Shown: positions 2,326 to 54,612 of the stretch, in pieces | Position numbering within the stretch: position 1 is the first letter of the stretch | Layout of the letters: every line of letters starts with the position of its first letter | NCBI GenBank assembly: GCA_002869225.1 | Contig: PKTG01000107.1 | Coordinates: 9,623 to 73,622, forward strand | From: Candidatus Muiribacterium halophilum | GTDB lineage: Bacteria; Muiribacteriota; Muiribacteriia; Muiribacteriales; Muiribacteriaceae | Length of the DNA: 64,000 nucleotides | Reading direction: 5' to 3' | Position numbers and translations under genes: made by a program | Notes under the pieces: model-generated | Told to the model about the DNA's origin: nothing | The model's database searches: none | The model's input: the letters and a program-made list of their open reading frames with translations, nothing else

Positions 2326-2385
2326 TATGAAATCGATACTGTTATATGTTATAATTAATAAAAATCATTAATGAAGGAGCTAATA

Positions 2386-2787
2386 ATGGAAATAAAGATA
2401 ATGGTAGTGGACGACGAAGAAGAGATCTTGAATCTGTTAAGAAAGTATCTTGAAAAAGCAGGTTTCAACAATGTTGTAACTATTAATGACCCTGAAAAGG
2501 CTCTTGAACTTATGCAGAAGGAACTGTATAAGATAGTACTTCTTGATATAAGAATGCCGAAGATGGATGGTATAGAACTACTGCAGAAGATAAAGGATAT
2601 AAATCCTCTTTGTAATATAATCATGGTAACAGCCTATTCGGACCTTAATAATGTTGTTGAATGTATTGCAAGAGGAGCAGTAGATTTTGTAGCAAAACCT
2701 TTTAAGATGAAAGAACTTACAAATATAGTGGGACAATGTAGAGAAAGAATAGATAGATGGAAAGATGTCATCTTGAAAAATGGATAA
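2386..2787 (+). CDS. single-domain response regulator (CheY-like receiver)
   Basis: VVDDEEE, LLDIRMPKMDG, MVTAYSD and AKPF receiver motifs. AAGGAG RBS 7 nt before ATG 2386; the ORF-track start at 2371 contains that RBS. Confidence 0.85.
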   Translation: MEIKIMVVDDEEEILNLLRKYLEKAGFNNVVTINDPEKALELMQKELYKIVLLDIRMPKMDGIELLQKIKDINPLCNIIMVTAYSDLNNVVECIARGAVDFVAKPFKMKELTNIVGQCRERIDRWKDVILKNG

Positions 2788-3805
2788 TATTCTAAGAGAA
2801 AATTTCTCTTCAGCTGTAAAGGTTAATATAGAAAGCCTTCAACAGATCATAGATAATGTCTTGAATTCTGACATGACAAATGGGCAGATTAGGCGTGTTT
2901 GTTCGAAAATATCCGTTGTAAAGGCTTTCTCTGCTTTTATCGGCGTGTCAGAGTATGCAGATGTGTTTCGTGGTATACAGAAGGTATGCGAAGACATTTA
3001 TAATAGAGATATGAATCATAAAAAAAGAGTGCTTTCAATCGTCAGAAAGTATATAAACTCAATAAAAGATCTTGAGGTTGACGGTAAGATATACGCTCAT
3101 CTTCCTGAACTGGAATATTTCATAGCTTTTCCTGATTCATTTATCTTTTTTGATATAGATCCTCTGGATATGATAATTAATGAGGATAATATCAAGATAC
3201 CAAGAGTAGATTGTATTCAGAATTTTATCTTTTTAAATAATCTTGAAAATAGTATTAAAAAAGAGGAGTTTTCGATCATAAAAGAATCAGCTAAACTTGT
3301 AAGAGATTCTTTTTATTTATCTTATTTTGATGATCTTAAAGATATAAAGAGTAAATTGGGAGAAAAATATACTGACATAATTTTTAATATACCGGATGTA
3401 AGTTTAAATCTCTTTAAGGATAATACTACTTTTATTGAAGATACAATAGAGTTCTTTATAAAAGGTTTCGGTTGTGAGGATAGGAAAATACATATAACTA
3501 TAGATAGAGAGGATGAGCTATCCTATTTCATAGAGTTTATCTGTGATAGTTCAAATGAAATGGTGTTGAAAAATTGTCAGGATAATGATCCGAAAATGCG
3601 CATCTTATATGATGATTGGAAAGAAATATATAAGATGATAAAGATAAGATCCGGAAATGAGAGCCTGAAAAAATTATTTCATCTTTTCTTATCTATTAAG
3701 ACTAGAATGAGAGACATCTCTTTTCAATTTGATAATAACAGTGCGAGACTAAAACTCATATTTCCTGACAACTTCTTTTTAAGTGAAGGTGTAATTGATG
3801 AATAA
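2780..3805 (+). CDS. hypothetical protein (341 aa) between the response regulator and the kinase, translationally coupled at both ends
   Basis: Long ORF whose start and stop overlap the neighbouring genes. I recognise no motif. Confidence 0.5.
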   Translation: MDNILRENFSSAVKVNIESLQQIIDNVLNSDMTNGQIRRVCSKISVVKAFSAFIGVSEYADVFRGIQKVCEDIYNRDMNHKKRVLSIVRKYINSIKDLEVDGKIYAHLPELEYFIAFPDSFIFFDIDPLDMIINEDNIKIPRVDCIQNFIFLNNLENSIKKEEFSIIKESAKLVRDSFYLSYFDDLKDIKSKLGEKYTDIIFNIPDVSLNLFKDNTTFIEDTIEFFIKGFGCEDRKIHITIDREDELSYFIEFICDSSNEMVLKNCQDNDPKMRILYDDWKEIYKMIKIRSGNESLKKLFHLFLSIKTRMRDISFQFDNNSARLKLIFPDNFFLSEGVIDE

Positions 3806-5567
3806 AAAAGAGATAATAACTATTATAAAAAGTTTAAAAAAAGATTTAAATCCGAAAAAGGATGTTCTTATTTCTGATCACTTTGAAGATAGTTCTTCTA
3901 AATATTCGATATTCTTACTTGTTGACGATGAAATAAAAAGACTCAGGTCGGAAAAAAAAGAAAATATTATATTTATTCGAAGCGAAGCTATATCTTTAGA
4001 TGACTCCAGAGCCTTGATCTATTTTATAGTGGAGAAATTTCTTAATAAAGGTATAGGTAGTATATTAGAACTTAAAGTAATAAATAATCTGGGAGTGGTA
4101 GTGGCACTTACTGGTAATCAGAGCAAGCTTATATATTCTGAGGAAGAGTTTTGTATTGGAGCATTTGATGATTGTAAGGAAAACTGTCTTTATAGAAAGG
4201 CAAGATATTCAAAAGAGGTCAAAGAAAAATTATCTCAACTGGGTGGTGATGTTTACTCTGTAAGTCTAAACTCCTTTAATATAAATGATAAAAGATTCTT
4301 TTTTGAGACAATAGAGAAGAAGATAGATCTAAAAATACTGGAAAAAGCAGTTTCAAATAAAACAGAGGAAGGGACTTTTTTTGCGCATTTTATCGATGTA
4401 CTTGAAGTGTTTTATATATCAAGATCTAAATCCGATTATATAGAGAAGATAGGAGAAAAACTATCATCTATTTTTAACAGTCCCTATTTTCTGCTTTCAG
4501 ATGGTGATTCTCTATATGAGTTCAGGGATAAACGACTGATTATTAAAAATGAAGCTAATTTACCTAAAAGATTTCAGAATGTGCAGTTTATAACTGATAT
4601 AAAAGATTAAAAATCTTTCTCGGATCTGGAAAGGTACGGACGATACATAATTTACTTTACCGCTTCCTCCTTAAATTCAGAACTAGCGCAAATATTGTTT
4701 GTTACGGATAGATTGGAAGAGGATATATTAAATCTAATAAACCTACTTTCGGGTCAGATATTCCTATGTCTTAATTATTTTGAGAAGGTTGAGAACGAAA
4801 GATTAGACAGTGTTAAACTCTTTCAAAGAGAGAAGATGGCTTCTTTAGGCCAGCTTTATCTTGGAATAACACATGAGATAAACAATCCCAATCCATTTAT
4901 ATCCGGTAACAGTTAACTTATAGAGATGAATATAGAAGATATTAGAGAGATGATAGCAAAAGGTGTTGATAAGAACATGCTATTAAAAAAGATGGATGAT
5001 ATAGATGAATCTCTTAAAGATATAATGAAAGGTTCTGAAAGAATAGATAGTATAGTGCAGAACCTTAAGCTTTTTTCGAGATTCGATTACTCCAATGTCA
5101 GGAAGAATGATATTAAGAGAATAATATCCGAAGCAATAAGAGTATCCCAGTATAGAGCTAAAGATAAAGATCTTTTTGAACTTATATCAAGATCTGGAGA
5201 ATTTAATGTTAAAGTAAATCATGATGAGATGCTACAGGTGTTTGTGAATATTTTTCTGAATTCAATACAATCTATTGAAAAGAAAAAAGAAATGCTTGAA
5301 GGAAGTTTCTTTCAAGGCAGAATACAGGTCGAGATAGAAATATTTGATAAAGAGATATGTATTAAAGTCGAGGATAACGGTGCTGGAATGGATAAGATAA
5401 TGGCTTCCAAGGTGTTTGACCCGTTTTTTACCACAAAGGGAAATGACGGTACCGGTCTTGGTATGAACATAGTCTATAATATTATTGCAAAATATTCAGG
5501 AAGGATAAAAGTTGAGACCGAGCTTGATAGTTTTTTCAGAACTATCATTAATTTGCCGATAGCTTGA
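3795..5567 (+). pseudogene. cytoplasmic sensor histidine kinase; three same-frame segments joined across two in-frame TAA (4608-4610, 4914-4916)
   Basis: ORFs 3795-4610, 4695-4916 and 4926-5567 are all in frame 0, and the 28 codons 4611-4694 are also open. H-box ITHEINNP lies just before the second TAA. HATPase motifs EDNGAGMD and GTGLGM follow it. Confidence 0.75.
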
Positions 5568-5646
5568 AAGATATAAAACGCTGATGTATAATAATTGTCT
5601 GTAAACAAAAGTAGTAATTAAGTTAATATAGTAAAGGGGAGTAGTT

Positions 5647-12176: not shown

Positions 12177-13018
12177 TGGAAATAAACAAAAGGTATCTTG
12201 AAAGATTACTTGAAACCGCAATAGATGAGGATATAGCATTTTCAGGAGATATTACTTCTGAAAATATCTTTGAACGATCTCATATTTCAAAAGGTAGATT
12301 TATCTCAAAAGAAGAAGGAATATTCTGTGGAGAAGAAATACTAAGATACATATTTAAAAATAAAGTAAAAGATGGCGAGATAGAAATAAAAAAGAAAGAT
12401 GGAGAATATCTTCAAAAAGGTGATATCATTGCCAAAGTCAAAGGTAATACAAAAGATATTCTTTTATTTGAAAGAACATGTTTAAATATTATTTGCCATA
12501 TGTCTGGTATAGCCAACAAGACGATGAGATTAGTTAAAGCTTTGAATAGAGCTGATATAAGAGTGGTTGATACAAGGAAGACCCTTCAAGGATTAAGAGC
12601 ATTACAAAAATATGCTGTTAAGATTGGAGGAGGATACAATCACAGAAGCGGATTGTATGATGCTGTTATGATAAAAGAAAATCATATTAAAGCTGCTGGA
12701 TCAATAAAAGAAGCTGTATAGAAGGTTAGAAGGAACGTATCTCATGTGATAAAGATAGAAGTTGAGACAACTGATCTTAAGGAAGTTCATGAAGCGGTAG
12801 AAGCCGGAGCTGATATAATTATGCTTGATAATATGGAACATGAACAGATGAGTCAGGCCTGTATTATAATCAACAGAAGAGCATTGATTGAGATTAGTGG
12901 TAATATAAGTGATGATAATATAAAGGAAAGAGTAAAAGAACTTCCAGTGGATATTATATCAAGTGGAGCTTTGACACATTCTGTTAAGGTATTTGATATA
13001 TCTTTTTTATTAGATTGA
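12176..13018 (+). pseudogene. nadC: nicotinate-nucleotide pyrophosphorylase (quinolinate phosphoribosyltransferase) with one in-frame TAG (12719-12721)
   Basis: ORFs 12176-12721 and 12746-13018 share a frame. The combined 280 aa is the canonical NadC length. KENHIKAAGSIKEAV-stop-KVRR..IKIEVETTDL..AGADIIMLDNM spans the stop. Confidence 0.85.
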
Positions 13019-16620: not shown

Positions 16621-17616
16621 ATGAAAAGATTTTTTGTAATATACATTATTTTTATATTCATATTCATGGCAATAGCGGATTCTACCGTCCATGATATGTA
16701 TCAGACTGCAGAAGAATATTATAAAGAGGGAATGATATAAAATTCCATTTCTCTACTTTAAAAAGTCATTCTTCAGGACCCTACCTTTATTAGTGCTTAT
16801 TATCTTTTAGGTAAGATTTACAAAGAGATAAATGAGTACGATAAGGCTATGTCATATTTTGAAAAGTGTATTGAGTTAAGACAGGATCTTAGAAATCGCG
16901 AAAAATCACTTGAAGAGAGTGGAATACCAAAGGTCAAGGTAGAGATGAGTGATGTTCTTAAAAAGATTGGAGAAGCTGAAGAGATACTCAGTCAGGGTAT
17001 AAGATTTGTAGAGGAAGGTGATTTTCTGTCTGCTGAGAACAGTTTTAAATATGCGATAGATCTAAACCCTAATGTTGCAGAATATTATTTTAGATTAGCG
17101 GATGTGTATCTTGATAGACAACTCGATGATATGGCTATAAGTACTTTAAAAAAAGGTCTGAGAATAGATACAAAAAATACTGACAGATATATACTACTTG
17201 CATCTTTATATTCAAAAAGCGGAGATGACAGGAAAGCTGTTCATCTTCTAAAGACAGCAGCTACTGATCATTTTAACGATAATCTTAAATTTAGAGATCT
17301 TATAAAGAGGTACTCTGCCAATATTATGGATAGAAGGGATTATACTGTAATAAGAAGAGATGGTAGAGAAGTTATAATAAATGCAGGGTTTAGAGATGGT
17401 ATAAAAAGAGGTATGGAATTCAGGACTCATCTGACTGTTTATAGGGGAGGCACTCCTGTGAAAGATCTAAATACAGGTGAGATACTTGGACAGACTGAAA
17501 GAAAGGTCATAGGAGAGTTGCTAATAACTAAGGTCGAAGAAAAACTCACTTATGGTCAGATAACTATTGAAAAAGAAGATAAGATTAGGATAGGGGATTT
17601 TATTTCAATTGAGTAA
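16621..17616 (+). pseudogene. TPR-repeat protein with N-terminal membrane anchor; two in-frame TAA (16738-16740, 16759-16761)
   Basis: ATG 16621 is in the same frame as ORF 16849-17616. MKRFFVIYIIFIFIFMAIA anchor. The first TPR unit reads YYKEGMI-stop-NSISLL-stop-KVILQDP..AYYLLGKIY and continues into the called ORF. Confidence 0.65.
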
Positions 17617-18055: not shown

Positions 18056-19590
18056 TACTTATATATATATTTACCTTTATGATCTTTTCCTTCTCAATAA
18101 ATAGTATATCAGTTCAGGTAAACGATATTACTTTTAAGGGAAATATTGACGGGGATATAGTATACCTTCCACTTACCGATGTATGTAAAGAATTCGATAT
18201 AAAGTTTGGTTTTTTTCCTGACACAAATATCATAGCTATCAACTTTCAGAATAAGATGATGAGTACCGTCGTGGATCAGAAAGAACTTATAGTAAATAAT
18301 GAGATAAGTGAACTTGAAAATCCACCAATTCTTATCAATTCCGAAGTCTATATGCCTATTGAGTTCTTCTCAAAATATCTGGAGTTGGATATATCATGGA
18401 AACCTGAAGAGATCTCAAAGAGTTCTGTTATAAGTGAACTTGTATTCAGGGAAAGTCCAGATGTTCTTGAAATATTTATTAAAGCCGATAAATCTTTTTC
18501 AAAGAACGAATATTTTGTGATACAGGATAAAAGAGATCTTATAATAAGTTTTCCTAATACTAAGATCGATTTAGAAGGTTTTGAATATCCTCATGATTAT
18601 ATTGAAGATGTAAATTATTTGAACGAAAAGCAGGAGACTGCTCAACTAACTATCAGATTTAAAAACAATCTTGACATTCAGTTGGGTCCTTCTGTAAAGC
18701 CAGCTGGGATGTATATTAGAGTAAATATATCTGATGTTCAGAAAACGCTTCCAGAAAATCGTGATGTATTGGATACTTCTGAGATCATTTCCTATAGAGA
18801 GCCAGGTTCTATTGAAGTATCTGCTTCAGAGATTCCCCTGATCTCAACGACTGAAGTTGCATCAGTGATCAGTTTAGACAGTCAGGAGACATATGAGGTA
18901 GAGGATTCATATATAGAAGAAGTTCCAGATATTGAACTTCAGCAATATACTTTTGTTGAGGAAACCTCTGAAAATATACTTGAGAATAAAGTCATCGTAA
19001 TCGATCCTGGCCATGGTGGTTCGGATTATGGTATTACCAAATTCGGTATATATGAAAAAGATATCGTACTTTCGATAGGAAGAAAACTTTTTGATAAGTT
19101 GTCTGAAGGGGATGCGTCAGTATTTCTGACAAGAAAGGGAAACGAGAATCTTACAGATGAAAAAAGGTCATATGTGGCAAATAGTAATAGGGCACAATTG
19201 TTTTTATCCTTGCATCTTGCTTTTAGCAGAGATGAAAAGATATCAGGATTTTCAATCTATTATTCTCCACAGTCTGAAAATGATCTAAAAGATAAACAGG
19301 ATTCGATGGAAGAACTAAAAAATATAAAAAGATATGATGATAGTATTAAATTTTAAAGACTCGTTAGCAGACACTTCGTGGACGATCTTGGTTTTATAGA
19401 TAGAAATATATTGCAGGCACCTATATCTGTTTTAAGAGATGTAAACTGTCCTTCTATATTACTTGAACTAAATCATTTATCAAATATGGAAATAGCACAG
19501 CTTTTAAAGGAAGATGATATACAGGATAAAATAGCCGATACTTTATATAAGGCTATTGAATCATATTTCATGAGAAAGAGAGCAAGATGA
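18037..19590 (+). pseudogene. N-acetylmuramoyl-L-alanine amidase (AmiC-like, AMIN plus Amidase_3) with one in-frame TAA (19354-19356)
   Basis: ORFs 18037-19356 and 19378-19590 share a frame. VIVIDPGHGGSDYG and ANSNRAQLFLSLHL lie before the stop. APISVLRDVNCPSILLELNHLSN lies after it. Confidence 0.8.
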
Positions 19591-22994: not shown

Positions 22995-24409
22995 TAGCTT
23001 CTAACAGATTACCTATAGTCATTAAAAAAGAAAATGAAAAAGATTTTTCAATGACTCCTGGAAAATGAGGACTTGTTACAGCAATGGCTCCTGTCTTAAG
23101 AGACAGAGGTGGCATCTGGCTCGGATGGCCTGGAATAACTGATGAGGATAATATTAGTGATAAAAAGTTAAAAGAACTTATGGAAAAAGGTATAAAGGAT
23201 AGTGGTTATGATCTGGAACCCATAATCTTTTCTCATGAAGAAGCTGAAAAATATTATGAAGGTTTTTCAAATGAGATAATTTGGCCATTATTTCATGATC
23301 TTCCATCTCTTTGTAATTTCAAAGAGGAATACTGGAATATATATAAGGATGTAAACGAAAGATTTGCCAGTAAATTGACTGAAAAAGCTAAACCCGAGGA
23401 TTTTATATGGGTACATGATTATCATCTGATAAATGTTGCGACAAGATTAAGAAAAAGATCGCTGACAAATAAGATAGGATTTTTTCTGCATATTCCTTTT
23501 CCTCCGCTTGATGTCTTTTTAAAATTACCTTGGAGAAGGGAGATACTTCAGAGCCTTTTAGATTATGACCTGATAGGATTTCAGACACAAAGAGATAAAA
23601 GAAACTTTCTTCAATGTGTTCGTAGAGTGCTTAGATTTAGAGTTCAGGCAAGAGGAACAAAAAACATGGTCTATATAAAAAATCATAACAGAAAGGTCAG
23701 TGTAGCAGCTTTCCCTATTAGTATAGATTATGATAGTTTTGCAGAAGGTGCAGAGTCTGAAAACGTAGCAAAAAGAGCATGGTTTCTGCATGAAAACCTT
23801 CCAAATAGAACTCTGATTCTCGGGATAGATAGATTGGATTATACTAAAGGGATACCTTTTAAATTAAAAGCTTTTAAAAGAGCACTTGAAAAATATCCTG
23901 AACTACATAAAAATATTTCACTGGTTCAGATACTGGTACCTTCAAGAGTGCATATACCTAAATATAGGGAATTAAAGGAGAATATCGAAAAGCTTGTTGG
24001 AGAGATAAACGGAAAATTCACTGAACTTGGTTGGGTACCTGTATATTATATATTTAGATCGATGACAAGAGAAGAACTTTTAGCTTATTACCGGACTTCA
24101 GAGATAGCTTTTGTAACTCCGCTAAAAGATGGAATGAATCTGGTGGTAAAGGAGTTTTGTGCAAGTAATATTGAGGAGACTGGAGTTGTCATACTTTCCG
24201 AGTTTGCTGGTGCTGCTGCACAACTCGGTGAAGATTCTATCCTAGTTAATCCGTATGATGTAGAAAGAACAGCCGATGCTATATACAATGCTTTTACCAG
24301 TGATTATACATATAGAAAAAGAAGGATGAGAAAATTAAGACGATCTATTAAAAAATATGATATCTTCTGGTGGGTAAATGAATTTTTGGAATATGGAAAA
24401 GAAGAATAG
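22973..24409 (+). pseudogene. otsA: alpha,alpha-trehalose-phosphate synthase (GT20) with one in-frame TGA (23066-23068)
   Basis: ATG 22973 (GGAGG RBS) is in the same frame as ORF 23084-24409. MSEGRLIIASNRLP..TPGK-stop-GLVTAMAPVLRDRGGIWLGWPG matches the N-terminal GT20 signature. The total of 478 aa is canonical. Confidence 0.85.
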
Positions 24410-27525: not shown

Positions 27526-28629
27526 ATGATAGCATATGGAGTTGATGAAGTACTGGAAAATCGAAAACATCTAATTAAGGGTGTTCCGATCATTTTAATA
27601 ACCCATTACTATATAAAGGATTCAAATAAGGAGTCTGTTGCTGAGTTGTTTTATCAGGATCCGGAGATTAATCTTTCAAAGATAGTTTGTCCTAAATTTG
27701 GCTTTTTTCTTGATTCTAATACGACTGAAGATTTTGAAGGAATACCAGTTGAGTTTTTTAATATAGAGGATTTTAAAAAATCTCTTAAAAATATCCGCAC
27801 AGTTGTATTTGATCTTCAGGATACAGGAGTTAAGAACTCTCCTATACTTATCATGCTATTTGATATAATGAAAATATTAAATGATGTTGATGTAAACTTT
27901 TTGGTCCTTGATAGACCCAATCCTTTAAACAGTATTTCCTATGCAGGTATTATAGGACCTCTTGACGAGAAAAGACTGCCTCTCAGACATGGTATGACTA
28001 TTGGTGAACTTGCGAGTTATTTTAAATCACAGTTCTTTATAAGTACAAGGTTAAACGTAATTAAGATGATAAATTACGATAGGGAAGAGACTATATACGA
28101 TATAGAAGCTGGCGATAATCCATATTTGCCCGGTATAAGAAACAGAGATAGTCTTTGCCTATATTCTTTTTTACATCTTTTCACTTCAATGAATATCTCT
28201 GTAGGGCTTTGAAGTGATGTTGAATTTCTTGTGTTTGGTGCTCCATGGATCGATCCTGATATAGTATTTGATCAGATCATAATGATGGGTTTTGATGGAT
28301 TTTCTATGGAGACCTGTTCATTTACTCCAAGAGTCGGAATCTATTCTTCCACTGAATGTCACGGTATAAGGTTTAGGATAAATGATCTTTCTATGTTTGA
28401 TCCTATAGAACTCTTCTTAAATATAACAGAGATCTTATACTCATCATTTGGTGAGATAGAATTTCTTATGGATGAAGATGGGATTTATTTAATTGATTCT
28501 TTTTTTTCTGATGAGAGGATCAGAATAACAATAGAGAGATATATTCCAGCAACAAATGCTTATTATAAAGCGATGTCTACAATGGAGAGTTTTATTCCGG
28601 CAAGGCAAGAGGTACTTTTATATTCATGA
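27526..28629 (+). pseudogene. DUF1343 / NamZ-like exo-N-acetylmuramidase with one in-frame TGA (28210-28212)
   Basis: ORFs 27526-28212 and 28231-28629 share a frame. FDLQDTGV and VLDRPNPLN lie before the stop. NISVGL-stop-SDVEFLVFGAPWI spans it. Confidence 0.8.
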
Positions 28630-43851: not shown

Positions 43852-45269
43852 AAGTACTTCTAGTAAATCAACCTGATACAGAGGTAATACTTGCTAATAA
43901 TCCGGAGATACTTGAAGAGGAAAGAGGATATAACCCTCCACTTGGAATACTATATGTAGCCGGTGCTTTAAAGCAGGCTGGAATAGATGTGGAAGTTCTT
44001 GATGCGCAGGTTGAAAGATTGGATTATGAGCAGCTTGAAAATAGAATAAGATAAAACAAACCAGATGCAGTTGGTATGACTCTAATGACATTTACTATAT
44101 TTGATGTCATAAAGACAGCAAAAGTCGTTAGAAAGATCGACAAGAATATAAAAATAGTCCTTGGTGGTCCACATGTATTTATTTATCCTGAAGAGACGCT
44201 TTTACAGGATTGGGTTGATATTATACAGATAGGCGAAGGAGAGAAAAATACTCCTGAGCTTTTTAAAAATATTAAAGATCTAGAAAAACTGAAAACAATT
44301 CATGGTGTAGGAATAAAAAATGAGGATGGTACATTTCAGATAAATCCTCCTGATGAAGCTATAAAGGATCTTGATGATCTTCCATTCCCGGCAAGAGAAC
44401 TTACACCTATTCAAAAATATTCATCTGTTATAGCTAAAAGAAATCCCATAACGACTATGTTTACAAGTAGAGGCTGTCCTTATAAATGTCTTTTCTGCAA
44501 TCGACCGCATCTTGGAAAGACATTCAGAGCCCGTAGTGCTGAGAATGTAATAGAAGAGTTTAAAGTGTGTTTTGATCTTGGAATAAGAGAGTTTTTAATA
44601 TACGATGATACGTTCACAATTAACCGAGAAAGGGTTGTTGATTTCTGTGAACTTATGAAAAAGACTGGACTTAACACAAAAGTTGGTTTTGATATTAGAG
44701 CAAGAGTCAATACAGTTGATAGAGAACTTCTTATAATGCTTAAAGAAGCTGGATGTGAAAGAATACATTACGGTGTAGAGTCTGGTACTGAAAAGATATT
44801 AAAAGTCCTTAGAAAAGGTATTACACTTAATCAGGCAAGAGAAGTCTTTAAGATAACCAAAGAGGTTGGGATATCAACACTTGCTTATTTTATGATAGGT
44901 TCTCCGACTGAGACAGAAGAAGATGTTGAGAAGACCATTGATTTTGCTCTTGAACTTGATCCTGATTTTGTACATGTTACAATAACTAGTCCATTTCCTG
45001 ATACTCCATTATATGCAATGGCGCTTGAAGAAAATGTAATAAAAAGGGATGTTTGGAGAGAGTTTGCTAAAAACCCAACAAAAGATTTTGTAGCACCGCA
45101 TTGGAATAGAGAACTTTCGGATGAGACTTTGCATAGACTGATTAAAAAAGCTTATAAAAAATTCTATATGAGACCTGGTTATATCATAAGAAGACTTCTT
45201 GACTTGAGATCATTTTCAGAGTTTATGAGAAAAGCCAAAGCAGGTATAAAGGTGTTCCTGTTAAAGTAA
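43848..45269 (+). pseudogene. B12-binding-domain radical SAM enzyme with one in-frame TAA (44052-44054)
   Basis: ATG 43848 and ORF 44076-45269 share a frame. ..ENRIR-stop-NKPDAVGMT..VLGGPH is the B12-binding fold. CPYKCLFC is the radical SAM cluster. Confidence 0.8.
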
Positions 45270-45433
45270 TATATTTACTCGACGTAGCTAAGGCTATGTC
45301 TCCGTCATTGTCGTTGAAATCCATTTTCACAGTCATAAGAATCAAAAGAACTTTAAACCTTAGATATATGTTTGTTTTAATAATTATAAATGTGGATTTT
45401 TTATACGATTCTCTGTAGAGATTTTCAACAAAA

Positions 45434-45602
45434 GAAGCAGGGATTTTGGTCAGAATTAATAACTGAGACTTGGGATAAAACTGGATTTTGGGAAGATAAA
45501 AACCAACCCAGACCACAAACCCCAAATTCCAAATCCCACGCTTTGCAGATTCTATGCTTTAGTCCATATTACCCATTTCACTTCACGCTTTACGCTTTAC
45601 GA
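45434..45602 (+). repeat. intergenic mosaic repeat C plus ACGCTT heptad tract
   Basis: GAAGCAGGGATTTTGG, then CTGGATTTTGGGAAGATAAAAACC...CCCCAAATTCCAAATCCC (imperfect palindrome), then CACTTCACGCTTTACGCTTTACG. Confidence 0.8.
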
Positions 45603-45615
45603 AAATGTTTCATTT

Positions 45616-45631
45616 TGGCATATTCTTTGCA
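45616..45631 (+). promoter_or_regulatory. sigma-54 (-24/-12) promoter TGGCATATTCTTTGCA upstream of hsp20
   Basis: Exact GG-N10-GC spacing and a TGGCA..TTGCA consensus match, 41 nt before ATG 45672. Confidence 0.65.
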
Positions 45632-45671
45632 GTAATATAAGTAGGTCAAATAAATTAAGGAGGTGGGCATT

Positions 45672-46103
45672 ATGAAACTCACAAAATATCGTAATCGAGA
45701 AAACTGGTTAGACAAGTCTTTCTTTAACGATTTCTTTAATCTGGGACCTGTATTTCCAGAAATGTGGAAAACAGAAGGAAGTTTTAAAGTTGATGTATAC
45801 TCAAAAGATAACAAACTAAACATTGATGCCGAACTTCCATCTGTAAAAAAGGAAGACATAACTCTTGAACTAACCGAAGGGGTTTTAACAATTACTACAA
45901 AGAAGGAAAAATCGGAAGAAGTAAAAGAAGATGATTACTATTACAGTGAAAGAAGTTATGGAACAATGAGTAGAAGCTTTAATGTAGGTTCAGAGATAAC
46001 AGAGGATGATATAAACGCAGAATTTAAGGATGGATTACTACATATTGAACTGCCAAAGAAAGAAATAGTGAAAAATGATACAAAAAAGATAACTATTAAA
46101 TGA
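45672..46103 (+). CDS. Hsp20/alpha-crystallin small heat-shock protein
   Basis: AAGGAGG RBS. VDVYSKDN..IDAELPSVKKEDITLEL..GVLTI..ERSYG.. ..GLLHIELPK alpha-crystallin pattern. Confidence 0.9.
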   Translation: MKLTKYRNRENWLDKSFFNDFFNLGPVFPEMWKTEGSFKVDVYSKDNKLNIDAELPSVKKEDITLELTEGVLTITTKKEKSEEVKEDDYYYSERSYGTMSRSFNVGSEITEDDINAEFKDGLLHIELPKKEIVKNDTKKITIK

Positions 46104-46150
46104 TACAAATAAAGTAAAGCTTAAAGAGAAAAGTCATAAAAAGAGAGATT

Positions 46151-46183
46151 AAAGGAAGGACAAACATGTCCTTCCTTTTAATT
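46151..46183 (+). terminator. rho-independent terminator of hsp20
   Basis: AAAGGAAGGAC-AAACAT-GTCCTTCCTTT hairpin followed by T residues. Confidence 0.8.
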
Positions 46184-46210
46184 CTTGTTGATTTCAGATA
46201 ATATGACATC

Positions 46211-46984
46211 ATGATCAAAAATAAAATCGAACTTATAAATCGTACAAATTCACTTGTGCTTGATGCTGGAAGACTTGCACATGAGAGATTTATCAACAAT
46301 GATTTTAAAGTCTCTAGAAAAGAAGATAATTCTTTTCTGACTACATCCGATATCATGACAGAGGAATTTTTAAGGAAAGGTCTTTCGGATATTTATTCCT
46401 GTCCTATATTGGGTGAGGAAGAAGGACTTGATACGGAATCTTTAGATGACGAACTTTGGGTAATAGATCCTATTGATGGAACACATTCGTATTCAAACGG
46501 TCTTGCTCCATGGACTGTATGTGTTGCTTTGTTTGAAGATGGTAATCCTTTCTATGGAGCAGTTTATGCTCCTGCGCTTAATGAGTTTTATTATGGTGCG
46601 AAAGGTCATGGTAGCTTTTTTAATTATAAAAGGATACATTGTAAATATTTTCCATCTGATGAAAAGACTATATGCATTGATTCTAAGACTTTAAAAACTG
46701 GTATTGATCTAAAAAACTTAAAGAATGCGAAGATTCGCTCATATGGTTCAACAGCTCTTCATATAGTCCTGGCAGCTAGAAATGCAGTGCAGGCAAGTTA
46801 TACATTGCCTGTAAAGATATGTGATGTAGCAGCTGCACATTCTATAATAAGTGAAGCTGGTGGAGTGCTTTTATATGAAGATGGAAAAGTCATAGATTAT
46901 GATAGACTTTTTTCGGGAGAGTATCTGGAAAAACCAGTTATTTCAGGTAACATTGATAATCTGAAGATGTTATTTGATGTTTAG
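46211..46984 (+). CDS. inositol monophosphatase family phosphatase
   Basis: ILGEEEG, WVIDPIDGT, and a C-terminal ..DVAAAHSIISEAGG motif. Confidence 0.8.
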   Translation: MIKNKIELINRTNSLVLDAGRLAHERFINNDFKVSRKEDNSFLTTSDIMTEEFLRKGLSDIYSCPILGEEEGLDTESLDDELWVIDPIDGTHSYSNGLAPWTVCVALFEDGNPFYGAVYAPALNEFYYGAKGHGSFFNYKRIHCKYFPSDEKTICIDSKTLKTGIDLKNLKNAKIRSYGSTALHIVLAARNAVQASYTLPVKICDVAAAHSIISEAGGVLLYEDGKVIDYDRLFSGEYLEKPVISGNIDNLKMLFDV

Positions 46985-47063
46985 AAAAAGTAATTAGGGG
47001 GCAGGTTCCAGGGAAAAGGGATGGACTTGTTTAATCCTACCAATTGATGTAGAATCTTAAATT

Positions 47064-48005
47064 ATGAAGACAATAGGCATATCATTTCTGGACAGTTATC
47101 TGAAGAACTCAGAGTGTAACAATAAAAGATTTATTAAAGAACTTAGAAAGATATATTATTCAAGTCAACTTAATCTGGTCTTAGGGTCAGGAGTCTCGAA
47201 AGCAGCTGGTCTTCCGTTGTGGCCTCAACTCGTTAAAGAACTCTATATCGATGTCATAGTAAATAATTTTATGGAAGAGGAACCAGATTGGGAAAAACTC
47301 GATCTTAAGACAGATGAGCTTATTCTTCAAGCAAGATATATAAAAAAAGGTTATGGAGATCTTACAAAATTTGTTGAAGCAATAAGGAAAAATCTCTATA
47401 CCAGGGAAGTTGATGTTGATAATGATCTTATGCAGGCTATTGGAAGGTTATGTGTTCCTACAAGGGCAAGTCATCTGAAATCAATAATAACTTATAATTT
47501 TGACGATCTTCTTGAAAAAAAACTGGAGACTCTTAAAGTCGAATACAAAGGGATTTATGATTCGAATATTTGTTTTAATAAATCAGATCTTCCTATTTAT
47601 CATGTTCATGGATTTCTTCCGCAGGATTCTAAAGAGGTAACGACAAAGAACCTTATATTTAGCGATGATGATTATAATAAACAGGCGAGCGGAAAGATAT
47701 TCTCATGGTCTAATGTAATTCAACTTACCAGTTTCAAAGATTCCTGTAATCTATTCATTGGTGCTTCTTTTAATGATAGTAATCTTAGAAGGATACTTGA
47801 GATAGTTAAGAATAACTTTCAGGGTGTGGTTAACTATGCTATTCAGAAAAGATCTTTTGATTCAAAAAAACAGGATGAGAAAAATAGAAAATTCTGTCTT
47901 ATAAACGATTATCTTAAAGAAAATGTTTTGGATGAACTTGGAATAAAGATAATATGGGTTGATGATTTTTCGGAGATACCGGAGATTATAGAAAGTATAA
48001 AATAA
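47064..48005 (+). CDS. standalone SIR2-like (SIR2_2 family) protein, putative NAD-consuming enzyme
   Basis: LVLGSGVSKAAGLPLWPQL, ITYNFDDLLE, PIYHVHGF and LFIGASFNDSNLRRIL match the order of motifs in the ThsA/DSR-type SIR2 domain as I recall them. Confidence 0.65.
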   Translation: MKTIGISFLDSYLKNSECNNKRFIKELRKIYYSSQLNLVLGSGVSKAAGLPLWPQLVKELYIDVIVNNFMEEEPDWEKLDLKTDELILQARYIKKGYGDLTKFVEAIRKNLYTREVDVDNDLMQAIGRLCVPTRASHLKSIITYNFDDLLEKKLETLKVEYKGIYDSNICFNKSDLPIYHVHGFLPQDSKEVTTKNLIFSDDDYNKQASGKIFSWSNVIQLTSFKDSCNLFIGASFNDSNLRRILEIVKNNFQGVVNYAIQKRSFDSKKQDEKNRKFCLINDYLKENVLDELGIKIIWVDDFSEIPEIIESIK

Positions 48006-48020
48006 ACAACAAAAAATAAA

Positions 48021-48052
48021 AAAAGGCTATCCATTTGGATAGCCTTTTTTTT
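48021..48052. terminator. bidirectional terminator
   Basis: AAAAGGCTATCC-ATTT-GGATAGCCTTTT hairpin followed by a T-run. Confidence 0.85.
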
Positions 48053-48061
48053 CTTGTTCTT

Positions 48062-50596
48062 TTATCTATTGATCATTGCTTCTTTTAGTTCTTCTGGTAG
48101 ATCGATCTTATTAAGATTAAAAGGATCTATACCTTCTTCATAAATTTCTTTTTCTAAAAGACTTGTGTAATCTTCAACTATATTAGTTAAAGTCTCTTTA
48201 TACATTTCTTTAAGAGTAGCTAGTCTCTTTATTCTTGTTTCAAGATCAGGGTAGATAGTATCGATTACGATTCCCATGACATCTTTTCTATTTTGCTGAG
48301 TAGAGATAGCCTCAAATCCGAATCCAAAATAAACGACTTTATAATCGCCAACATAATAAAGTGCAGCAGCTCCGTCATCTTTATAATCAAATAACACCTG
48401 TGAACCTTCAGGCTCTATTACATCAGGATACTTCTGATTATCAGCTCCGTCTCCATCCTCAATTGCAAAGGATATCGTATCAGATCTTACTATTCGAGTA
48501 TCAGCTTTATCCTTTATATATTTAGCTTTAAGCATATCTTTATAAAATGCTTTTGTCTTTATATTGTATCCAATATCCTGACCAGTTATGAAAAGACTTC
48601 CACCCGAGTTGAGATATTTTTCTAAGATAGCTGAATCGTTATCGTCCACAGTATCCGAAGTCTTACCGCCTGTAAACCATATAACCATATTATATGGCAT
48701 TAAAATATCTTCTGAAACATCTCCATCTTTATCCGTATTATGACAATTGAAATCGATTCCAAGATCCTGTAATGCCTGACTGTAATAATTTATTAGATTA
48801 TCTGATGATTTGCTGTTATCAACAACAAGTACTGGAGGCAGTGCTTCAAGTGATATATCGAGATCTGTGTTATAGGAATAGTTTGTCTTTTCTATAACTA
48901 GAGTCTCATACCCGTATGCTTTGACTGTAAGAGAATATAATCCAGCAACAAGCTCGAGTTCAAATTCTCCAAAATTATCAGTATCCGCAGAAACGCCTTC
49001 CACTTCGTTTATAATTACAGTAGCTTTGATAGGTTCGTTGTCCTTATTGACAACCTTTCCGCTTATCTCTATCTTCTGAGCTTCTGAAAGGTAGAAGTCG
49101 CAGTCGCTAGTCTGTGATGAATAGACTGTTACGGTTTGCTCTTTTGGAAGATAACCATAAGCTGATGCTATAAGAGTATAACTTCCTGATGGAAGCATAA
49201 ATTTATAATCTCCGTCTTTATTACATCTATAAGTAGTTCCTGTCTCTTTTACAGTAATGCTTACAGCTACGCCGCTTACGTTTACACTACCGCTTACAAA
49301 ACCACCGTTTTTAGCAAGTTTGACTGCAGTGTATGCATCAAGCCAACCATGTCCATATGAATAATCATAACCTTCGTCTCCTGCATCATGACAGGATGCA
49401 TAAAGTATCTGTCTGACATCGTCTATTGTGAGCGCAGGGTTAGCTGAAAGTATAAGTGCAACAACACCAGTTGTATGTGGTGAAGCCATTGAAGTACCGG
49501 ACATAGTCCTGTATCCGCCGCCTGCTTTAACTGAATATACATCAACACCAGGTGAAGCGACATCGGGTTTATCTATGTTCATACCTTTAAAGATCGCTGG
49601 TCCTCTGCTTGAGAAACTCGCAACTTTTTTATTACTGTCAAGAGCAGCTGTAGCAATAAGAGCTGGAAATTCTTTAGGTTTAGTTATAGTTGAAGCGCCA
49701 GGCCCTGAGTTTCCGGCTGAAAAACAAGGGATTATACCTGTATCTATCCATCTTTCAAGCATAGCATAATATGGAGTCTGATCGCCATATCCTGAATGCC
49801 ATGAACAGTTAATTGCTCTTGGAAAATCTGCAGTATCAGGATTTCCATCAGGATCTATCATATGTTCCATTGCTTCAAGTAGATATGAAGCTCTGGTTCC
49901 TTTAGAGGATATTCCTTTTGCTATAATCAGTTTAGCTTCTGGAGCGACTCCTATGTGTTTTCCGGAAATGGTTCCACCAGCTATGGTTCCTGCAACATGT
50001 GAACCGTGTCCATGTCCATCGGTCATATTATCAAGACTTGTATTTCCACCAGGTTCCCAATATGAGATTACCTTTTTTGTTCCTTTAAATTCAGGATGAT
50101 TTCCATCAATTCCTGTATCTATTATTCCAACATTTATTCCCTGTCCTTTAATTCCTAGTTCATCCCACACTTTTTGGACATTCATGTTTTTAAGTCCATA
50201 AGTAAGGTTATCAGATGAAGTCTCAATAATCGGTGTATCTTTTGATACAGGTTCTTCCGGATATTCAATAATATCAGGAAGTATATAGAGAACTTCAGGC
50301 ATACTTTCAAGAGATTTAGTGATATTTATATCATCTTTTACTACAATTGCGTTAACGGACCATAGAAAGTTTTCTATATTAAATCTGTTTCCAACTTTTG
50401 TCATAAACATGTTTAAGGATTTTTCAGCACCTGATTTCATCTCTCGCAAGATCATAGGTCTGTTAGACATATCCTTTTTTAATTTCTGTACCTGATAACC
50501 CACAGGGTATTTCAGGAAGATGATTGAACCTTCAGATGCGAAGGTGTTTACGCATATAAAAAGTATCATCATGGTTAATAAGATAGTTCTTTTCAT
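48062..50596 (-). CDS. large secreted subtilisin-family (S8) peptidase with carboxypeptidase-regulatory-like and C-terminal domains
   Basis: Signal peptide. IIDTGID, HGHGSHVAGT, SGTSMASPH triad motifs. Two YGY..beta-sandwich repeats. Confidence 0.9.
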   Translation of the reverse strand: MKRTILLTMMILFICVNTFASEGSIIFLKYPVGYQVQKLKKDMSNRPMILREMKSGAEKSLNMFMTKVGNRFNIENFLWSVNAIVVKDDINITKSLESMPEVLYILPDIIEYPEEPVSKDTPIIETSSDNLTYGLKNMNVQKVWDELGIKGQGINVGIIDTGIDGNHPEFKGTKKVISYWEPGGNTSLDNMTDGHGHGSHVAGTIAGGTISGKHIGVAPEAKLIIAKGISSKGTRASYLLEAMEHMIDPDGNPDTADFPRAINCSWHSGYGDQTPYYAMLERWIDTGIIPCFSAGNSGPGASTITKPKEFPALIATAALDSNKKVASFSSRGPAIFKGMNIDKPDVASPGVDVYSVKAGGGYRTMSGTSMASPHTTGVVALILSANPALTIDDVRQILYASCHDAGDEGYDYSYGHGWLDAYTAVKLAKNGGFVSGSVNVSGVAVSITVKETGTTYRCNKDGDYKFMLPSGSYTLIASAYGYLPKEQTVTVYSSQTSDCDFYLSEAQKIEISGKVVNKDNEPIKATVIINEVEGVSADTDNFGEFELELVAGLYSLTVKAYGYETLVIEKTNYSYNTDLDISLEALPPVLVVDNSKSSDNLINYYSQALQDLGIDFNCHNTDKDGDVSEDILMPYNMVIWFTGGKTSDTVDDNDSAILEKYLNSGGSLFITGQDIGYNIKTKAFYKDMLKAKYIKDKADTRIVRSDTISFAIEDGDGADNQKYPDVIEPEGSQVLFDYKDDGAAALYYVGDYKVVYFGFGFEAISTQQNRKDVMGIVIDTIYPDLETRIKRLATLKEMYKETLTNIVEDYTSLLEKEIYEEGIDPFNLNKIDLPEELKEAMINR

Positions 50597-50658
50597 TGTA
50601 TTCTCCCTTTTTATTGTTTTTTCTAAATAAAGACTTATTTGTTATATAGCGTTCAATT

Positions 50659-52014
50659 CTATAATAAATTTGATAGATGTTCAATCTTTATCGGAAAATA
50701 AAGGTCTACTGTAAAACTTTGACCTTTTATACTGCTTACATTAATACGGCCTTTCAGCTTATTTATGAGTTTGTCTGCAAGTGAAAGCCCAAGACCGAGT
50801 CCTGAAAAGGTCCTGTTAAGTCCGTTTTCATCCTGATAAAAATCAAGAAATAAGTATTTTAACTTATCCTCTTCTATACCTATACCATAATCTTTTATAG
50901 TTATATTAATAAGATCGTTTTCTGTTTTTAGTGATACACTGATATTTACCTTATTTGGATCTTTAGAGAATTTAGTTGAATTATCAATAATTATATTAAG
51001 TATCTGATAAAAAAAAGTTTGATTGGTTCTTATAAAAATTTCTTTATCAGGAAAGTAAAGATCAAAGTTCATTTCTTTTTCATAAGCGTTTTTCTTTTTA
51101 TGTATATTTATTATATTGTTGATTGATTCTTTTAATGGGATTATTTCGGTCTCTATTATATTGTTTTCCTCTAATTGAAGACGGCTTAGCTGTATTATCT
51201 CATCGACTTTTTCGCATAGTTTTTCAGTATTCTTTGTTACAATGGCTATTTTACTTTTTTGTTTTTCATTCAATGGACCAAATCTTTCTTTTTGTAGAAG
51301 TTCTATATATCCTTGAATAGCTATAAGCGGTGTCCTTATCTCGTGTCCTATTATTGCTATTATATCTCTTTTAGTTGAAGCAAGCGAATCTCTGGTGAAG
51401 GAGTTCATTATAGACCTCCGTCTTTCTATATCAAGATAATATATAAGTGTTAAAAATGAGAAAAAAATTGAGGATAAAACGAACAAAACGTTAAAAATAA
51501 AATTATTTTTCAAGCACATCAATATAGCTGAAAAAGAATTTAAAAGTAAAGATATATACTGTAGATTAGCTGTATGAGAAACTTTTAAAAAAAAATGCAA
51601 TCTTTTTATAGAGTAAATCGATATCAAAACAAAAAATATACATATAAGGTAATTGTGAATTGGGTTGTAATTATCTATTGTTGTTAGAATTATCGATAAA
51701 AAAATATAAGGTAAAAATAATTTATTAAAAGAGATTGGTTTTTTTCTTAAAGAATTAAAAAGGAGTATTATAAAGAAAATAGCCCAAATCAAAAGCATGT
51801 TTTTAAAAATATTTGATTCTAAAGTCATATTATAAAAATCAAGTAGATTTCCAGAGTGGATATTTGTGAATAATCTTGAAAAAGAAAAAAGTAAAAAAGA
51901 TGTTCCCAACAACTTATATAGATTATTCTCATACCTTGTATGAATAAATATAAGTGTTGAAAATATTATTACGCCCGGTAATAAAGATGAGATAAAAATC
52001 GGTAAAGTATTCAA
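50659..52014 (-). CDS. membrane sensor histidine kinase (multi-TM N-terminus)
   Basis: At least 5 TM helices. H-box IIGHEIRTPL. HATPase GLGLGLSLA. Confidence 0.85.
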   Translation of the reverse strand: MNTLPIFISSLLPGVIIFSTLIFIHTRYENNLYKLLGTSFLLFSFSRLFTNIHSGNLLDFYNMTLESNIFKNMLLIWAIFFIILLFNSLRKKPISFNKLFLPYIFLSIILTTIDNYNPIHNYLICIFFVLISIYSIKRLHFFLKVSHTANLQYISLLLNSFSAILMCLKNNFIFNVLFVLSSIFFSFLTLIYYLDIERRRSIMNSFTRDSLASTKRDIIAIIGHEIRTPLIAIQGYIELLQKERFGPLNEKQKSKIAIVTKNTEKLCEKVDEIIQLSRLQLEENNIIETEIIPLKESINNIINIHKKKNAYEKEMNFDLYFPDKEIFIRTNQTFFYQILNIIIDNSTKFSKDPNKVNISVSLKTENDLINITIKDYGIGIEEDKLKYLFLDFYQDENGLNRTFSGLGLGLSLADKLINKLKGRINVSSIKGQSFTVDLYFPIKIEHLSNLL

Positions 52015-52085
52015 AGCCTCTCCATTATAAAAGGTGAAAAATATAATTAGATGTTATAACAAAATAGACATATATGCAAGGTAAT

Positions 52086-52114
52086 TTGACTATAAATGGA
52101 ATGGTTTGTAATAT
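52086..52114 (+). promoter_or_regulatory. candidate sigma-70 promoter TTGACT-17-TAATAT for metG
   Basis: Read directly, 43 nt upstream of ATG 52157. Confidence 0.5.
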
Positions 52115-52156
52115 GTAAAAAATATAAAATGTAAGTAGATAATCGGGAGGATTTTA

Positions 52157-54061
52157 ATGGAAAAAAGACCTTTTTATATTACAACTGCGATAGATTATGT
52201 TAATTCGGTACCTCATATTGGACATGCTCTGGAAAAAATAGGTGCTGATGTCATCGCCAGATACAAAAGATTAGACGGATTTGATGTCCGATTTACAATA
52301 GGCACTGATGAACATGGAAGTAAGATAGAAAGAGAAGCTCAAAAACAAGGTATTACACCTAATGAACTTGTTGATAAAAATGCCAAAGCTTTTAAAGAGG
52401 CATGGGAAAGACTAAATATAAAATACGATGATTTTATAAGGACAACTGAACAAAGACATGAAGATGTCGTAAAAGCGATGTTCTCTAAGATCTTTGATAA
52501 TGGCTATATATATAAATCAGCTTATAGTGGTCTTTATTGTGTGGGTTGCGAGACCTTTTTAAAGGAAAAGGATCTTGTTGATGGGAAATGTCCAAATCAC
52601 GGTACCGTTCCTGAAAAGATGGAAGAGGAGAATTATTTCTTTGCATTATCGAAATTTGAAGAACCGCTGAAGAAGATGTACGAAGAATTTCCAGATAAGA
52701 TGGTGCCGGAGTTTAGGAAAAATGAGATATTAAACATATTAGAAGGTGGTTTAGAAGACGTATCTGTATCAAGAGGTTCTTTAAATTGGGGTGTTAGATT
52801 ACCTAATGACGAGGAACACGTTGTCTGGGTGTGGTTTGATGCCCTTATAAATTACATATCTTCTATTAAATATTCCACCAATCAGGAGTTTTTTGAAAAA
52901 TACTGGGAAAATTCACTTCATATTATTGGAAAAGATATAACCAGACTTCATTGTATCATATGGCCTGCAATGCTTATGGCTGCAGATATACCAGTCTTTA
53001 CAAAAGTACTTGCTCATGGTTTTGTCAATATGAAAGGTGAGAAGATGTCTAAATCTCTTGGAAACGTACTTGACCCTATGGATATAGCTGATAAATACGG
53101 AGCTGATCCGTTAAGATACTATATGATGAGTGAAGTAGGCATGATCAGAGATGGAGATTTTTCATGGGAGCTTTTTATAAAGAGGTATAACTCCGATCTT
53201 GCAAATGATCTTGGTAATCTTCTACACAGGACAAAAAATATGGTTAAGAAATATCTTGGTGGAGAACTTGATTGTAAGGATTGTTCATCTGATAAAAAGA
53301 TAATTGAAAATACAAAGATAAAGACGGATGAATATATTGATTCAATGAATGATTATGATATAGCGACAGCTACATCCAAAGCTATAGATATTGTAAAGTA
53401 TGCAAACTGGTACATTGATAATTCTGCGCCTTGGACAAGTTTCAAGGAAGGAAACCTCGCTCAGGTAAATAATATACTTTATAATGTACTTGAATCTCTT
53501 CGAATAGCTACATTATTACTTTATCCGATAATACCTCAGACAAGTGAAAAAATATTTGATGAGATGGGAATAGTTGATAAACCAGAGGAGCTTGAACTAA
53601 ATAAAGCAAAAGCTTGGGGTGGATATTCTTCTAAAAAGACTCTTGTTGTTGGAAAACCTATTTTCCCTAGAATAGAGATTAAAAAAGAAGAGGAAAATAA
53701 GACCACAGATACGAAAAAAGAGAATATAAAAGATGATAATCTGATCGAGTTTTCTGATTTTGAAAAAGTGCAGATGAAAGTAGCTGAGATAATAGAAGCT
53801 AAAAAACATCCCAAAGCAGATAGGTTGCTTTTAGTAAAGGTAAAAGTAGGTCAGGAGGAAAGACAGGTGGTTGCCGGTATAGCTGATTATTACAAACCTG
53901 AAGAGTTATCTGGAAAAAGAGTCGCTATGGTGTGTAATCTTAAGCCGGTCAAACTCAGAGGAGAACTTTCAGAAGGCATGCTTTTAGCTGTAAAAGATAA
54001 AAAAGAACTTTCACTTGTAACCTTTGACAGGGAAGTAAGACCGGGCAGAAAATTATCCTGA
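52157..54061 (+). CDS. metG: methionine--tRNA ligase with C-terminal tRNA-binding domain
   Basis: HIGH motif (PHIGHALE), KMSKS, zinc knuckle CVGCE..CPNHG, and a C-terminal EMAPII/Trbp111-like domain. Confidence 0.95.
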   Translation: MEKRPFYITTAIDYVNSVPHIGHALEKIGADVIARYKRLDGFDVRFTIGTDEHGSKIEREAQKQGITPNELVDKNAKAFKEAWERLNIKYDDFIRTTEQRHEDVVKAMFSKIFDNGYIYKSAYSGLYCVGCETFLKEKDLVDGKCPNHGTVPEKMEEENYFFALSKFEEPLKKMYEEFPDKMVPEFRKNEILNILEGGLEDVSVSRGSLNWGVRLPNDEEHVVWVWFDALINYISSIKYSTNQEFFEKYWENSLHIIGKDITRLHCIIWPAMLMAADIPVFTKVLAHGFVNMKGEKMSKSLGNVLDPMDIADKYGADPLRYYMMSEVGMIRDGDFSWELFIKRYNSDLANDLGNLLHRTKNMVKKYLGGELDCKDCSSDKKIIENTKIKTDEYIDSMNDYDIATATSKAIDIVKYANWYIDNSAPWTSFKEGNLAQVNNILYNVLESLRIATLLLYPIIPQTSEKIFDEMGIVDKPEELELNKAKAWGGYSSKKTLVVGKPIFPRIEIKKEEENKTTDTKKENIKDDNLIEFSDFEKVQMKVAEIIEAKKHPKADRLLLVKVKVGQEERQVVAGIADYYKPEELSGKRVAMVCNLKPVKLRGELSEGMLLAVKDKKELSLVTFDREVRPGRKLS

Positions 54062-54168
54062 AAAAATAGCTTTATCAGGAATAAATAAGTGGTACTAAAA
54101 AAAATCACTTGAAATAAAGATTAATGTTATTATAATTATAATATACAATCATAATATGGAGGGGTGGT

Positions 54169-54528
54169 ATGGTACAACTTGAAAATGTAAAGGTGGAAAG
54201 TCTGGTTGAAGCAAACAGAAACTTTAAGCTTCTAGTCAATGAACTTTTGGAGCAACCGGATATCTTCCTATCTCAGCAGGAAAGATGGACAATGCTTCTA
54301 AGACTTAGAGATCGACTAAAGGATTCAAACACTACAAATGAACATGTCTCTAAATTTAATCAATTTATTGTAGACAATGTGGATCTATTTGCGTCTCTTC
54401 CTTCACACAAGGAAAGACCACCGTTTTACTGGTGGAATCATCTTGATAAAGTGAAAGATGGTGAGATGAATGTTTTTCTTAATAAAGCTTTTATTGAGTT
54501 TAATGGAGTGGGTTATAGCGTAGAATAA
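54169..54528 (+). CDS. hypothetical protein (119 aa)
   Basis: GGAGGGG RBS. A strong terminator lies downstream. No recognised motif. Confidence 0.45.
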   Translation: MVQLENVKVESLVEANRNFKLLVNELLEQPDIFLSQQERWTMLLRLRDRLKDSNTTNEHVSKFNQFIVDNVDLFASLPSHKERPPFYWWNHLDKVKDGEMNVFLNKAFIEFNGVGYSVE

Positions 54529-54563
54529 AAAAGAATTTAAATTTTATGATCCTTCGGGATCTG

Positions 54564-54612
54564 ATGACAAAAAGACATCAACCTTAACGGGAGATGTCTT
54601 TTTGTCATTTTA
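54564..54612 (+). terminator. rho-independent terminator with a 16-bp stem
   Basis: ATGACAAAAAGACATC (54564-54579) pairs with GATGTCTTTTTGTCAT (54593-54608), then TTT. Confidence 0.8.

Follow-up and report, generated by a model that had tools for sequence, protein, structure and literature searches.

Organization of the kinase locus

The window, i.e. the whole stretch of DNA that was analyzed, comprises 64,000 nucleotides. It contains a three-gene operon on the + strand that ends with a sensor histidine kinase gene. The features of this locus are:

2371..2787, + strand, receiver-only response regulator, first gene of the operon (Response_reg, 113.7 bits, Pfam)
2780..3805, + strand, conserved 341-aa protein of no known family, syntenic in sister genera
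3798..5567, + strand, sensor histidine kinase gene, 589 codons and a TGA stop, here in three pieces through two nonsense codons
3798..4817, + strand, N-terminal sensor region of the kinase, ~340 residues, no known domain
4608..4610, + strand, first of the two in-frame TAA codons (codon 271), within the sensor region, which is poorly conserved
4860..5087, + strand, HisKA (DHp) phospho-acceptor domain, residues 355-430, split by the second TAA (Pfam)
4914..4916, + strand, second in-frame TAA (codon 373), 14 codons past the phospho-accepting His359
5223..5558, + strand, HATPase_c (catalytic), residues 476-587, Pfam scores of 57.7-60.3 bits (cut-off 26.4)

The gene for the 341-aa protein overlaps with both adjacent genes, so that stops and starts overlap throughout the operon. 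Pfam and NCBIfam profiles did not assign this protein to a family; homologous ORFs are located directly upstream of the kinase in two sister genera (genomes G003 and G002). Promoter-like sites were found ahead of the operon (2327-2355) and after the kinase (5564-5592). The receiver gene lies two genes upstream of the kinase, an order which is kept in other assemblies of the population, and its product is the probable phosphotransfer partner: the kinase would autophosphorylate at His359 and then pass the phosphate to the receiver protein encoded nearby.

In an earlier sequence-only reading the ORFs 3795-4610, 4695-4916 and 4926-5567 had been proposed to be segments of a single histidine kinase gene separated by two TAA codons. 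All three ORFs indeed share one frame, and translation confirms the two TAA codons at 4608-4610 and 4914-4916. The 28 codons between the first TAA and the TTG at 4695 (4611-4694) are open as described, with the chance of such an open stretch amounting to 9.4% when calculated from the base composition of the window, instead of the ~12% given previously. The second stop is found in the context ITHEINNPNPFISGNS-TAA-LIEMNIEDI, with the codon of His359 at 4872-4874. The kinase likely initiates at the ATG at 3798. The sequence GAAGGTG (3785-3791) is located six bases ahead of this ATG, and an intact version of the protein in the databases (P0002) likewise begins with MNKKEI.

Domain composition of the kinase

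In the intact allele P0002 the Pfam HisKA model reaches 28.3 bits at a cut-off of 26.9 and the match spans codon 373. When the pieces are searched separately HisKA remains below the cut-off, with no match in piece 2 and 14.7 bits in piece 3. The H-box lies in piece 2 and the distal half of HisKA in piece 3. Similarly, the NCBIfam AtoS model matches piece 2 up to approximately model position 416 and is picked up again by piece 3 at approximately position 429. HATPase_c scores 57.7 bits in P0002 and 60.3 bits in piece 3 of the window, and its N, G1 (DNGAGM), F (FDPFFTTK) and G2 (GTGLGM) boxes were all identified. The intact allele therefore combines a HisKA domain with the conserved His and a HATPase_c domain, both above the Pfam cut-offs, as is characteristic of HisKA-type kinases.

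Residues ~330-589, the kinase core, align over their full length with the sensor kinases KinB (PDB 3d36), ZraS (9jfj) and LvrB (8vc9) with E-values of 1e-16 to 2e-12, these being the closest to the core. The H-box of the kinase, HEINNPNT, resembles the HE(I/L)(N/R)NP of KinB, ZraS, AtoS (NF008468) and LvrB, and a response regulator gene in the kinase operon is a further trait in common with known HisKA-family sensor kinases. However, the kinase of the window stays far below the cut-offs of the equivalog models (AtoS NF008468 and others), and for its sensor region relatives could be detected only within the bacterial family.

Within the ~340 residues of the sensor region we found no Pfam family, no PAS, GAF or HAMP match and no transmembrane segment. 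Since it does not contain a hydrophobic segment, the region is probably cytoplasmic. A phmmer search with the 340 residues against 1.84 billion representative sequences gave nothing below 1e-10 except a fragment of the kinase itself, and a word-based database search found the intact allele alone. The alignment of the region to the orthologues from both sister genera is weak, yet collinear. Residues 119-130 contain a Cys-x6-Cys-x3-Cys pattern (EEFCIGAFDDCKENCL), which is also present in the G003 orthologue (NTCKGEFEDCNKLCL) and absent from the one in G002; that it might form a metal or redox site is pure speculation. The structure predicted for the intact protein from an alignment of three sequences has a mean pLDDT of 37.6 and a pTM of 0.28, a quality that does not permit a fold search.

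Orthologues in sister genera

We carried out a six-frame search for orthologues of the kinase in 41 related genomes. In G003 and G002 syntenic kinases were found as single ORFs of 602 aa (G003) and 615 aa (G002), in open frames of 605 and 623 aa, respectively, without stops, which align over both stop positions of the window with 39% identity over residues 39-585 for G003 and 35% over residues 161-589 for G002. The gene order is partly conserved in these sister genera, with the homologue of the 341-aa protein, the kinase and then an S8 subtilase. E373, the residue at which the second TAA falls, is invariant in the orthologues (GNSELIE or GNTELID). The first TAA falls in a variable stretch opposite a Tyr in G002 and a gap in G003. 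Comparison with full-length orthologues, which had been suggested as a check, is thus in favor of the joined reading: the three segments belong to a single kinase gene with a length of about 590 codons, of which intact alleles exist as well (see below). Based on these alignments and on the domain matches across the pieces the joining of the segments is far beyond chance.

The opposite arrangement, in which the N-terminal protein and the kinase are genuinely separate genes, was not encountered in any of the orthologous loci found. The split kinase would then consist of a sensor protein of 270 aa and a catalytic fragment of 213 aa. An ATG is present at 4926, and NCBI nr and UniRef list the pieces as individual proteins. 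On the other hand the phospho-acceptor domain would be cut mid-way, and the helix with His359 would be left in a piece of 73-101 codons without a ribosome-binding site. Together with the unsplit state of all related loci this makes a split kinase barely conceivable.

The locus in other assemblies of the population

Two public bioreactor-metagenome runs, referred to as X1 and X2, contain the stretch under study (word shares of 0.91 and 0.86, respectively). Both were compared in the form of Logan contigs, which drop minor variants, at a depth of ~22x (X1) and ~15x (X2). At 4608 and 4914 the contigs of X1 and X2 carry a G, i.e. GAA at both sites, where the window has a T. The same two G are found in ENA ERZ794998 NODE_34, ENA ERZ794999 NODE_15, Logan SRR5894289 and JGI 3300007102 Ga0102541_1031384, and the gene order around the kinase is identical in the other assemblies. 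As ERZ794998, ERZ794999, SRR5894289 and JGI 3300007102 differ from each other at ordinary polymorphic sites, there must be three or more consensus haplotypes among them. The suggestion that a Glu codon, GAA, would fit at the second TAA is therefore correct, the residue being an invariant Glu in the orthologues and the codon GAA in all other assemblies; GAA is the original codon at the first TAA as well.

The protein databases contain three intact 589-aa versions of the kinase. When both TAA codons are taken as Glu, the translation of the window is identical to P0002 at 585 of 589 residues. Judging by these comparisons, the locus encodes a single sensor histidine kinase of 589 residues, ordinary and probably cytoplasmic, which is intact in the population. 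In the assembly under study it has in-frame stops where intact orthologues and alleles have sense codons, as would be expected of a pseudogene. Three more private changes were found in the same gene:

3822, + strand, C>A, Leu to Ile
4893, + strand, A>C, invariant Thr366 of the H-box (HEINNPNT) to Pro; Thr in P0002 and the orthologues
5435, + strand, C>A, synonymous

The kinase fragments from the contig of the window (C27) stand separately in NCBI nr and UniRef (P0007 and P0008; 213 aa and 270 aa) and share clusters with the intact versions (589 aa) that stem from ENA, Logan and JGI.

Class, context and distribution of the private substitutions

The two stops are private to this assembly, and they belong to a class of changes with a distinct sequence context that is spread over the whole genome and lacks signs of selection. 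For the analysis of these changes ~83 kb (window 1-64000 and positions 163001-182030 of a second contig, G000:C138) were compared with X1 and X2. A difference was considered private when X1 and X2 agree against this assembly. We found 54 private differences, 48 of which are G:C>T:A in this assembly. One, the A>C at 4893, goes in the opposite direction. Differences found in a single run were regarded as natural polymorphism; in the first 64.3 kb they number 59 and comprise 33 transitions and 16 exchanges between A:T and C:G. G>T or C>A changes are consequently in clear excess among the private differences (48/54 compared to 16/59 natural ones).

In 45 of the 48 cases the changed G has a purine as its 3’ neighbor, against a background of 59% (chi-square p-value = 2e-5). 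This is the sequence context of guanine oxidation: the context published for 8-oxoG, CCG>CAG, corresponds to the 5’ G of a GG step on the G strand (PMC3616734).

Private G:C>T:A changes are not distributed evenly along the window. There are 31 in positions 1-45311 and 3 in positions 45295-64000, a decrease from 0.68 to 0.16 per kb. This drop at ~45.3 kb might be due to a local coverage, or to source data of the assembly, that differs between the two parts. A short multi-copy repeat is located at 45270-45610, with a summed depth of ~270x/180x in comparison to 22x/15x in the surrounding sequence. The Logan contigs all break at this repeat, and many joints and loose ends lead from it to other genomic places. 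A chimeric contig, considered because of zero depth past ~45.6 kb, was dropped as an explanation after other X1 and X2 contigs were found to cover the region at >99.9% identity. At natural polymorphic sites the window has a haplotype of its own, which is a mosaic of X1-like and X2-like states.

Nonsense changes and selection

Of the private changes in the first 64.3 kb, 13 are nonsense, 25 missense and 9 synonymous, and 3 lie between genes; position 63278, within ftsK, adds a 14th nonsense change. Variants found in one run, in contrast, include no nonsense, 20 missense and 28 synonymous changes. Ten private nonsense codons lie in the window, two in the kinase and eight in other genes:

12719-12721, nadC (QRPTase, Pfam label), GAG in X1 and X2
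16738-16740, TPR-like protein, GAA in X1 and X2
16759-16761, the same TPR-like protein, second stop, GAA in X1 and X2
19354-19356 (changed base 19355), amidase-like gene, TCA in X1 and X2
23066-23068, otsA-like gene, GGA in X1 and X2
28210-28212, conserved gene of 365 aa, GGA in X1 and X2
44052-44054 (changed base 44053), radical-SAM gene, TCA in X1 and X2
63277-63279 (changed base 63278), ftsK, TCG in X1 and X2

We extended the analysis to the whole genome by a tblastn screen with ORFs from 1.03 Mb of the sister genome G003 as queries. In 136,303 aligned codons 49 in-frame stops were detected, and ~12% of 428 orthologues were interrupted. From the measured rate per G/C, 39 stops would be expected without selection. 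Restricting the comparison to genes with at least 65% identity gave 6 stops against 8.0 expected, which is no depletion. The interrupted genes include ones conserved at 65-76% identity, and judging from their motifs the genes hit look like PNPase, a 2-oxoacid:ferredoxin oxidoreductase subunit, FtsK, NadC, OtsA and Mfd. Stops are spread across all contigs without heterogeneity (p = 0.39). The private changes are thus blind to their coding consequences, with 14 nonsense changes in 83 kb and conserved genes equally affected. The most conserved genes at first seemed slightly poor in stops, an effect that vanished once the expectation was calculated from the counts of stop-prone codons. A screen based on paralogues (94 sites: 63 TAA, 18 TGA, 13 TAG) was abandoned in favor of the orthologue screen due to false positives from tandem paralogues.

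Evidence against TAA as a sense codon

An expression of one product across the two TAA codons, as was implied by the sequence-only reading, would have to rely on programmed readthrough, a suppressor tRNA or a reassignment of TAA to Glu. Both TAA codons stand for Glu codons in a frame that is open throughout, and in-frame TAA codons occur in further genes of this assembly. However, the DNA itself differs, as GAA is found at both sites in all other assemblies. The in-frame stops of the orthologue screen are of all three kinds (35 TAA, 11 TGA, 11 TAG), the residues replaced include Glu, Gly, Ser and others, and the G>T class to which the stops belong also comprises missense and synonymous changes. 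TAA is moreover the commonest genuine terminator of this genome: among the 1240 ORFs with 300 or more codons 643 (52%) end with it, and so do all four neighboring genes. None of the 39 tRNAs detected with ARAGORN in the whole assembly, a genome that is 89% complete, has a UUA anticodon, and no tRNA genes were found in the 64-kb window. Orthologues have sense codons at the stop sites, therefore nothing is conserved there. Taken together, neither mark of a reassigned codon is present: TAA is in regular use as a terminator without being conserved in-frame, and a matching tRNA was not found among those detected. Considering the sequence data, readthrough or recoding of the two TAA codons is essentially excluded, and we give this explanation next to no weight. 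RNA sequencing or proteomics, which had been recommended as a check for a single product, are not supported as the decisive one; four to five other assemblies of the population have GAA in their DNA at both sites.

Origin of the private changes

We consider it very probable that the stops are G-to-T errors which became fixed in the consensus of this assembly. The two TAA codons would be 2 of roughly two thousand G:C>T:A changes across the whole assembly. In the proposed mechanism guanine is oxidized to 8-oxoG, which pairs with A and would lead to G>T changes, nearly always at a G that precedes a purine. Such errors might have entered the consensus e.g. via an oxidized library and/or one amplified from low input. 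Artefacts of 8-oxoG described by Costello et al. (2013, PMC3616734) belong to the same substitution class and likewise depend on the bases beside the G. They differ in that the published artefact has a low allele fraction and a read-orientation bias, whereas the changes described here sit in the assembly consensus. Classical 8-oxoG library artefacts remain at an allele fraction under 10% (PMC3616734), and at such low fractions they are unlikely to enter a consensus at ordinary coverage. An additional circumstance must therefore be assumed: the coverage may have been very low, the DNA may have been amplified from a small amount, or a processing step may have been faulty. The uneven density of private changes along the window and the lack of a MutY-like gene in the whole family (see below) also speak against an artefact of the simple kind.

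The assembly could also represent a real sub-lineage, a hypermutator or one under strong oxidative stress, that has acquired ~2000 G:C>T:A mutations. In that case the kinase would be a true, very young pseudogene, as would about one in ten of all genes. Mutation class and 5’-GR context are those of oxidized guanine, which acts in vivo too, and since the haplotype of the window is a mosaic of its own at polymorphic sites, it could stem from a different sample. However, there is no depletion of nonsense changes (49 were observed where 39 would be expected, some of them in genes at 65-76% identity) and the ratio of missense to synonymous changes is neutral, while natural variants of the population are mostly synonymous. 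A real sub-lineage would have to grow with ~250 knocked-out genes, without any class being purged, and nevertheless dominate the assembly. Searching for 31-mers of the private variants (window 4880-4945 and 16708-16790) listed no indexed public run, which with 2-3 words sampled speaks only weakly against a real sub-lineage. On balance we regard such a sub-lineage as unlikely.

Lineages with defects in GO repair (mutY/mutM) are mutators with a G:C>T:A spectrum. When they persist, they still purge nonsense mutations from needed genes. The spectrum found here is the same, and the bacterial family seems to be without MutY: no recognizable MutY is present in this assembly or in the genomes of three sister genera (G001-G003), where the search returned only an Nth-like ORF at 67-79 bits, while other families of the phylum have MutY-like matches of 180-280 bits. 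An in-vivo bias towards G:C>T:A is plausible for a bacterial family without MutY. In contrast to mutY/mutM mutators, nonsense changes are present here at or above the neutral expectation, and sister populations with the same gene content do not have the changes. The lack of MutY was rejected as the cause, because it is shared by the whole family including the intact populations and leaves a private burst unexplained. The absence of MutY may be one reason for the low G+C content (33%) and for the fact that A:T<->C:G exchanges are fairly frequent among the natural polymorphisms. The Nth-like ORF of this assembly (endonuclease III family, G000:C126:5579-6145) has an in-frame TGA within the matched range.

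In its most specific form, a real sub-lineage would be a Muiribacteriota-like bioreactor inhabitant of a MutY-less family in which a burst of oxidized-guanine mutations has knocked out ~10% of the genes, including the kinase, and which still became abundant enough for assembly. We find this scenario distinctly unlikely; if true, it would be an extreme natural hypermutator or an event of genome decay caught in the act. We favor an error in the consensus, since nonsense changes are not depleted, ~250 broken genes are implausible for an assembled lineage, and the natural variants show purifying selection. We infer that the private changes arose in vitro and not in a living lineage.

Implications for the use of the assembly

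The stops in the kinase gene are no biological signal. Biologically the locus is unremarkable, a normal sensor kinase that is intact in the organism and has no bearing on recoding. For users of the assembly the finding is a warning about data quality. About one gene in eight has a false or unselected stop here, and many more genes carry missense changes, such as Thr366Pro in the H-box of the kinase. This genome will mislead any scan that looks for split genes or readthrough, for an altered genetic code or for the load of pseudogenes. Intact contigs with which in-frame stops can be compared are available in ENA ERZ794998, ENA ERZ794999, JGI 3300007102 and Logan SRR5894289.
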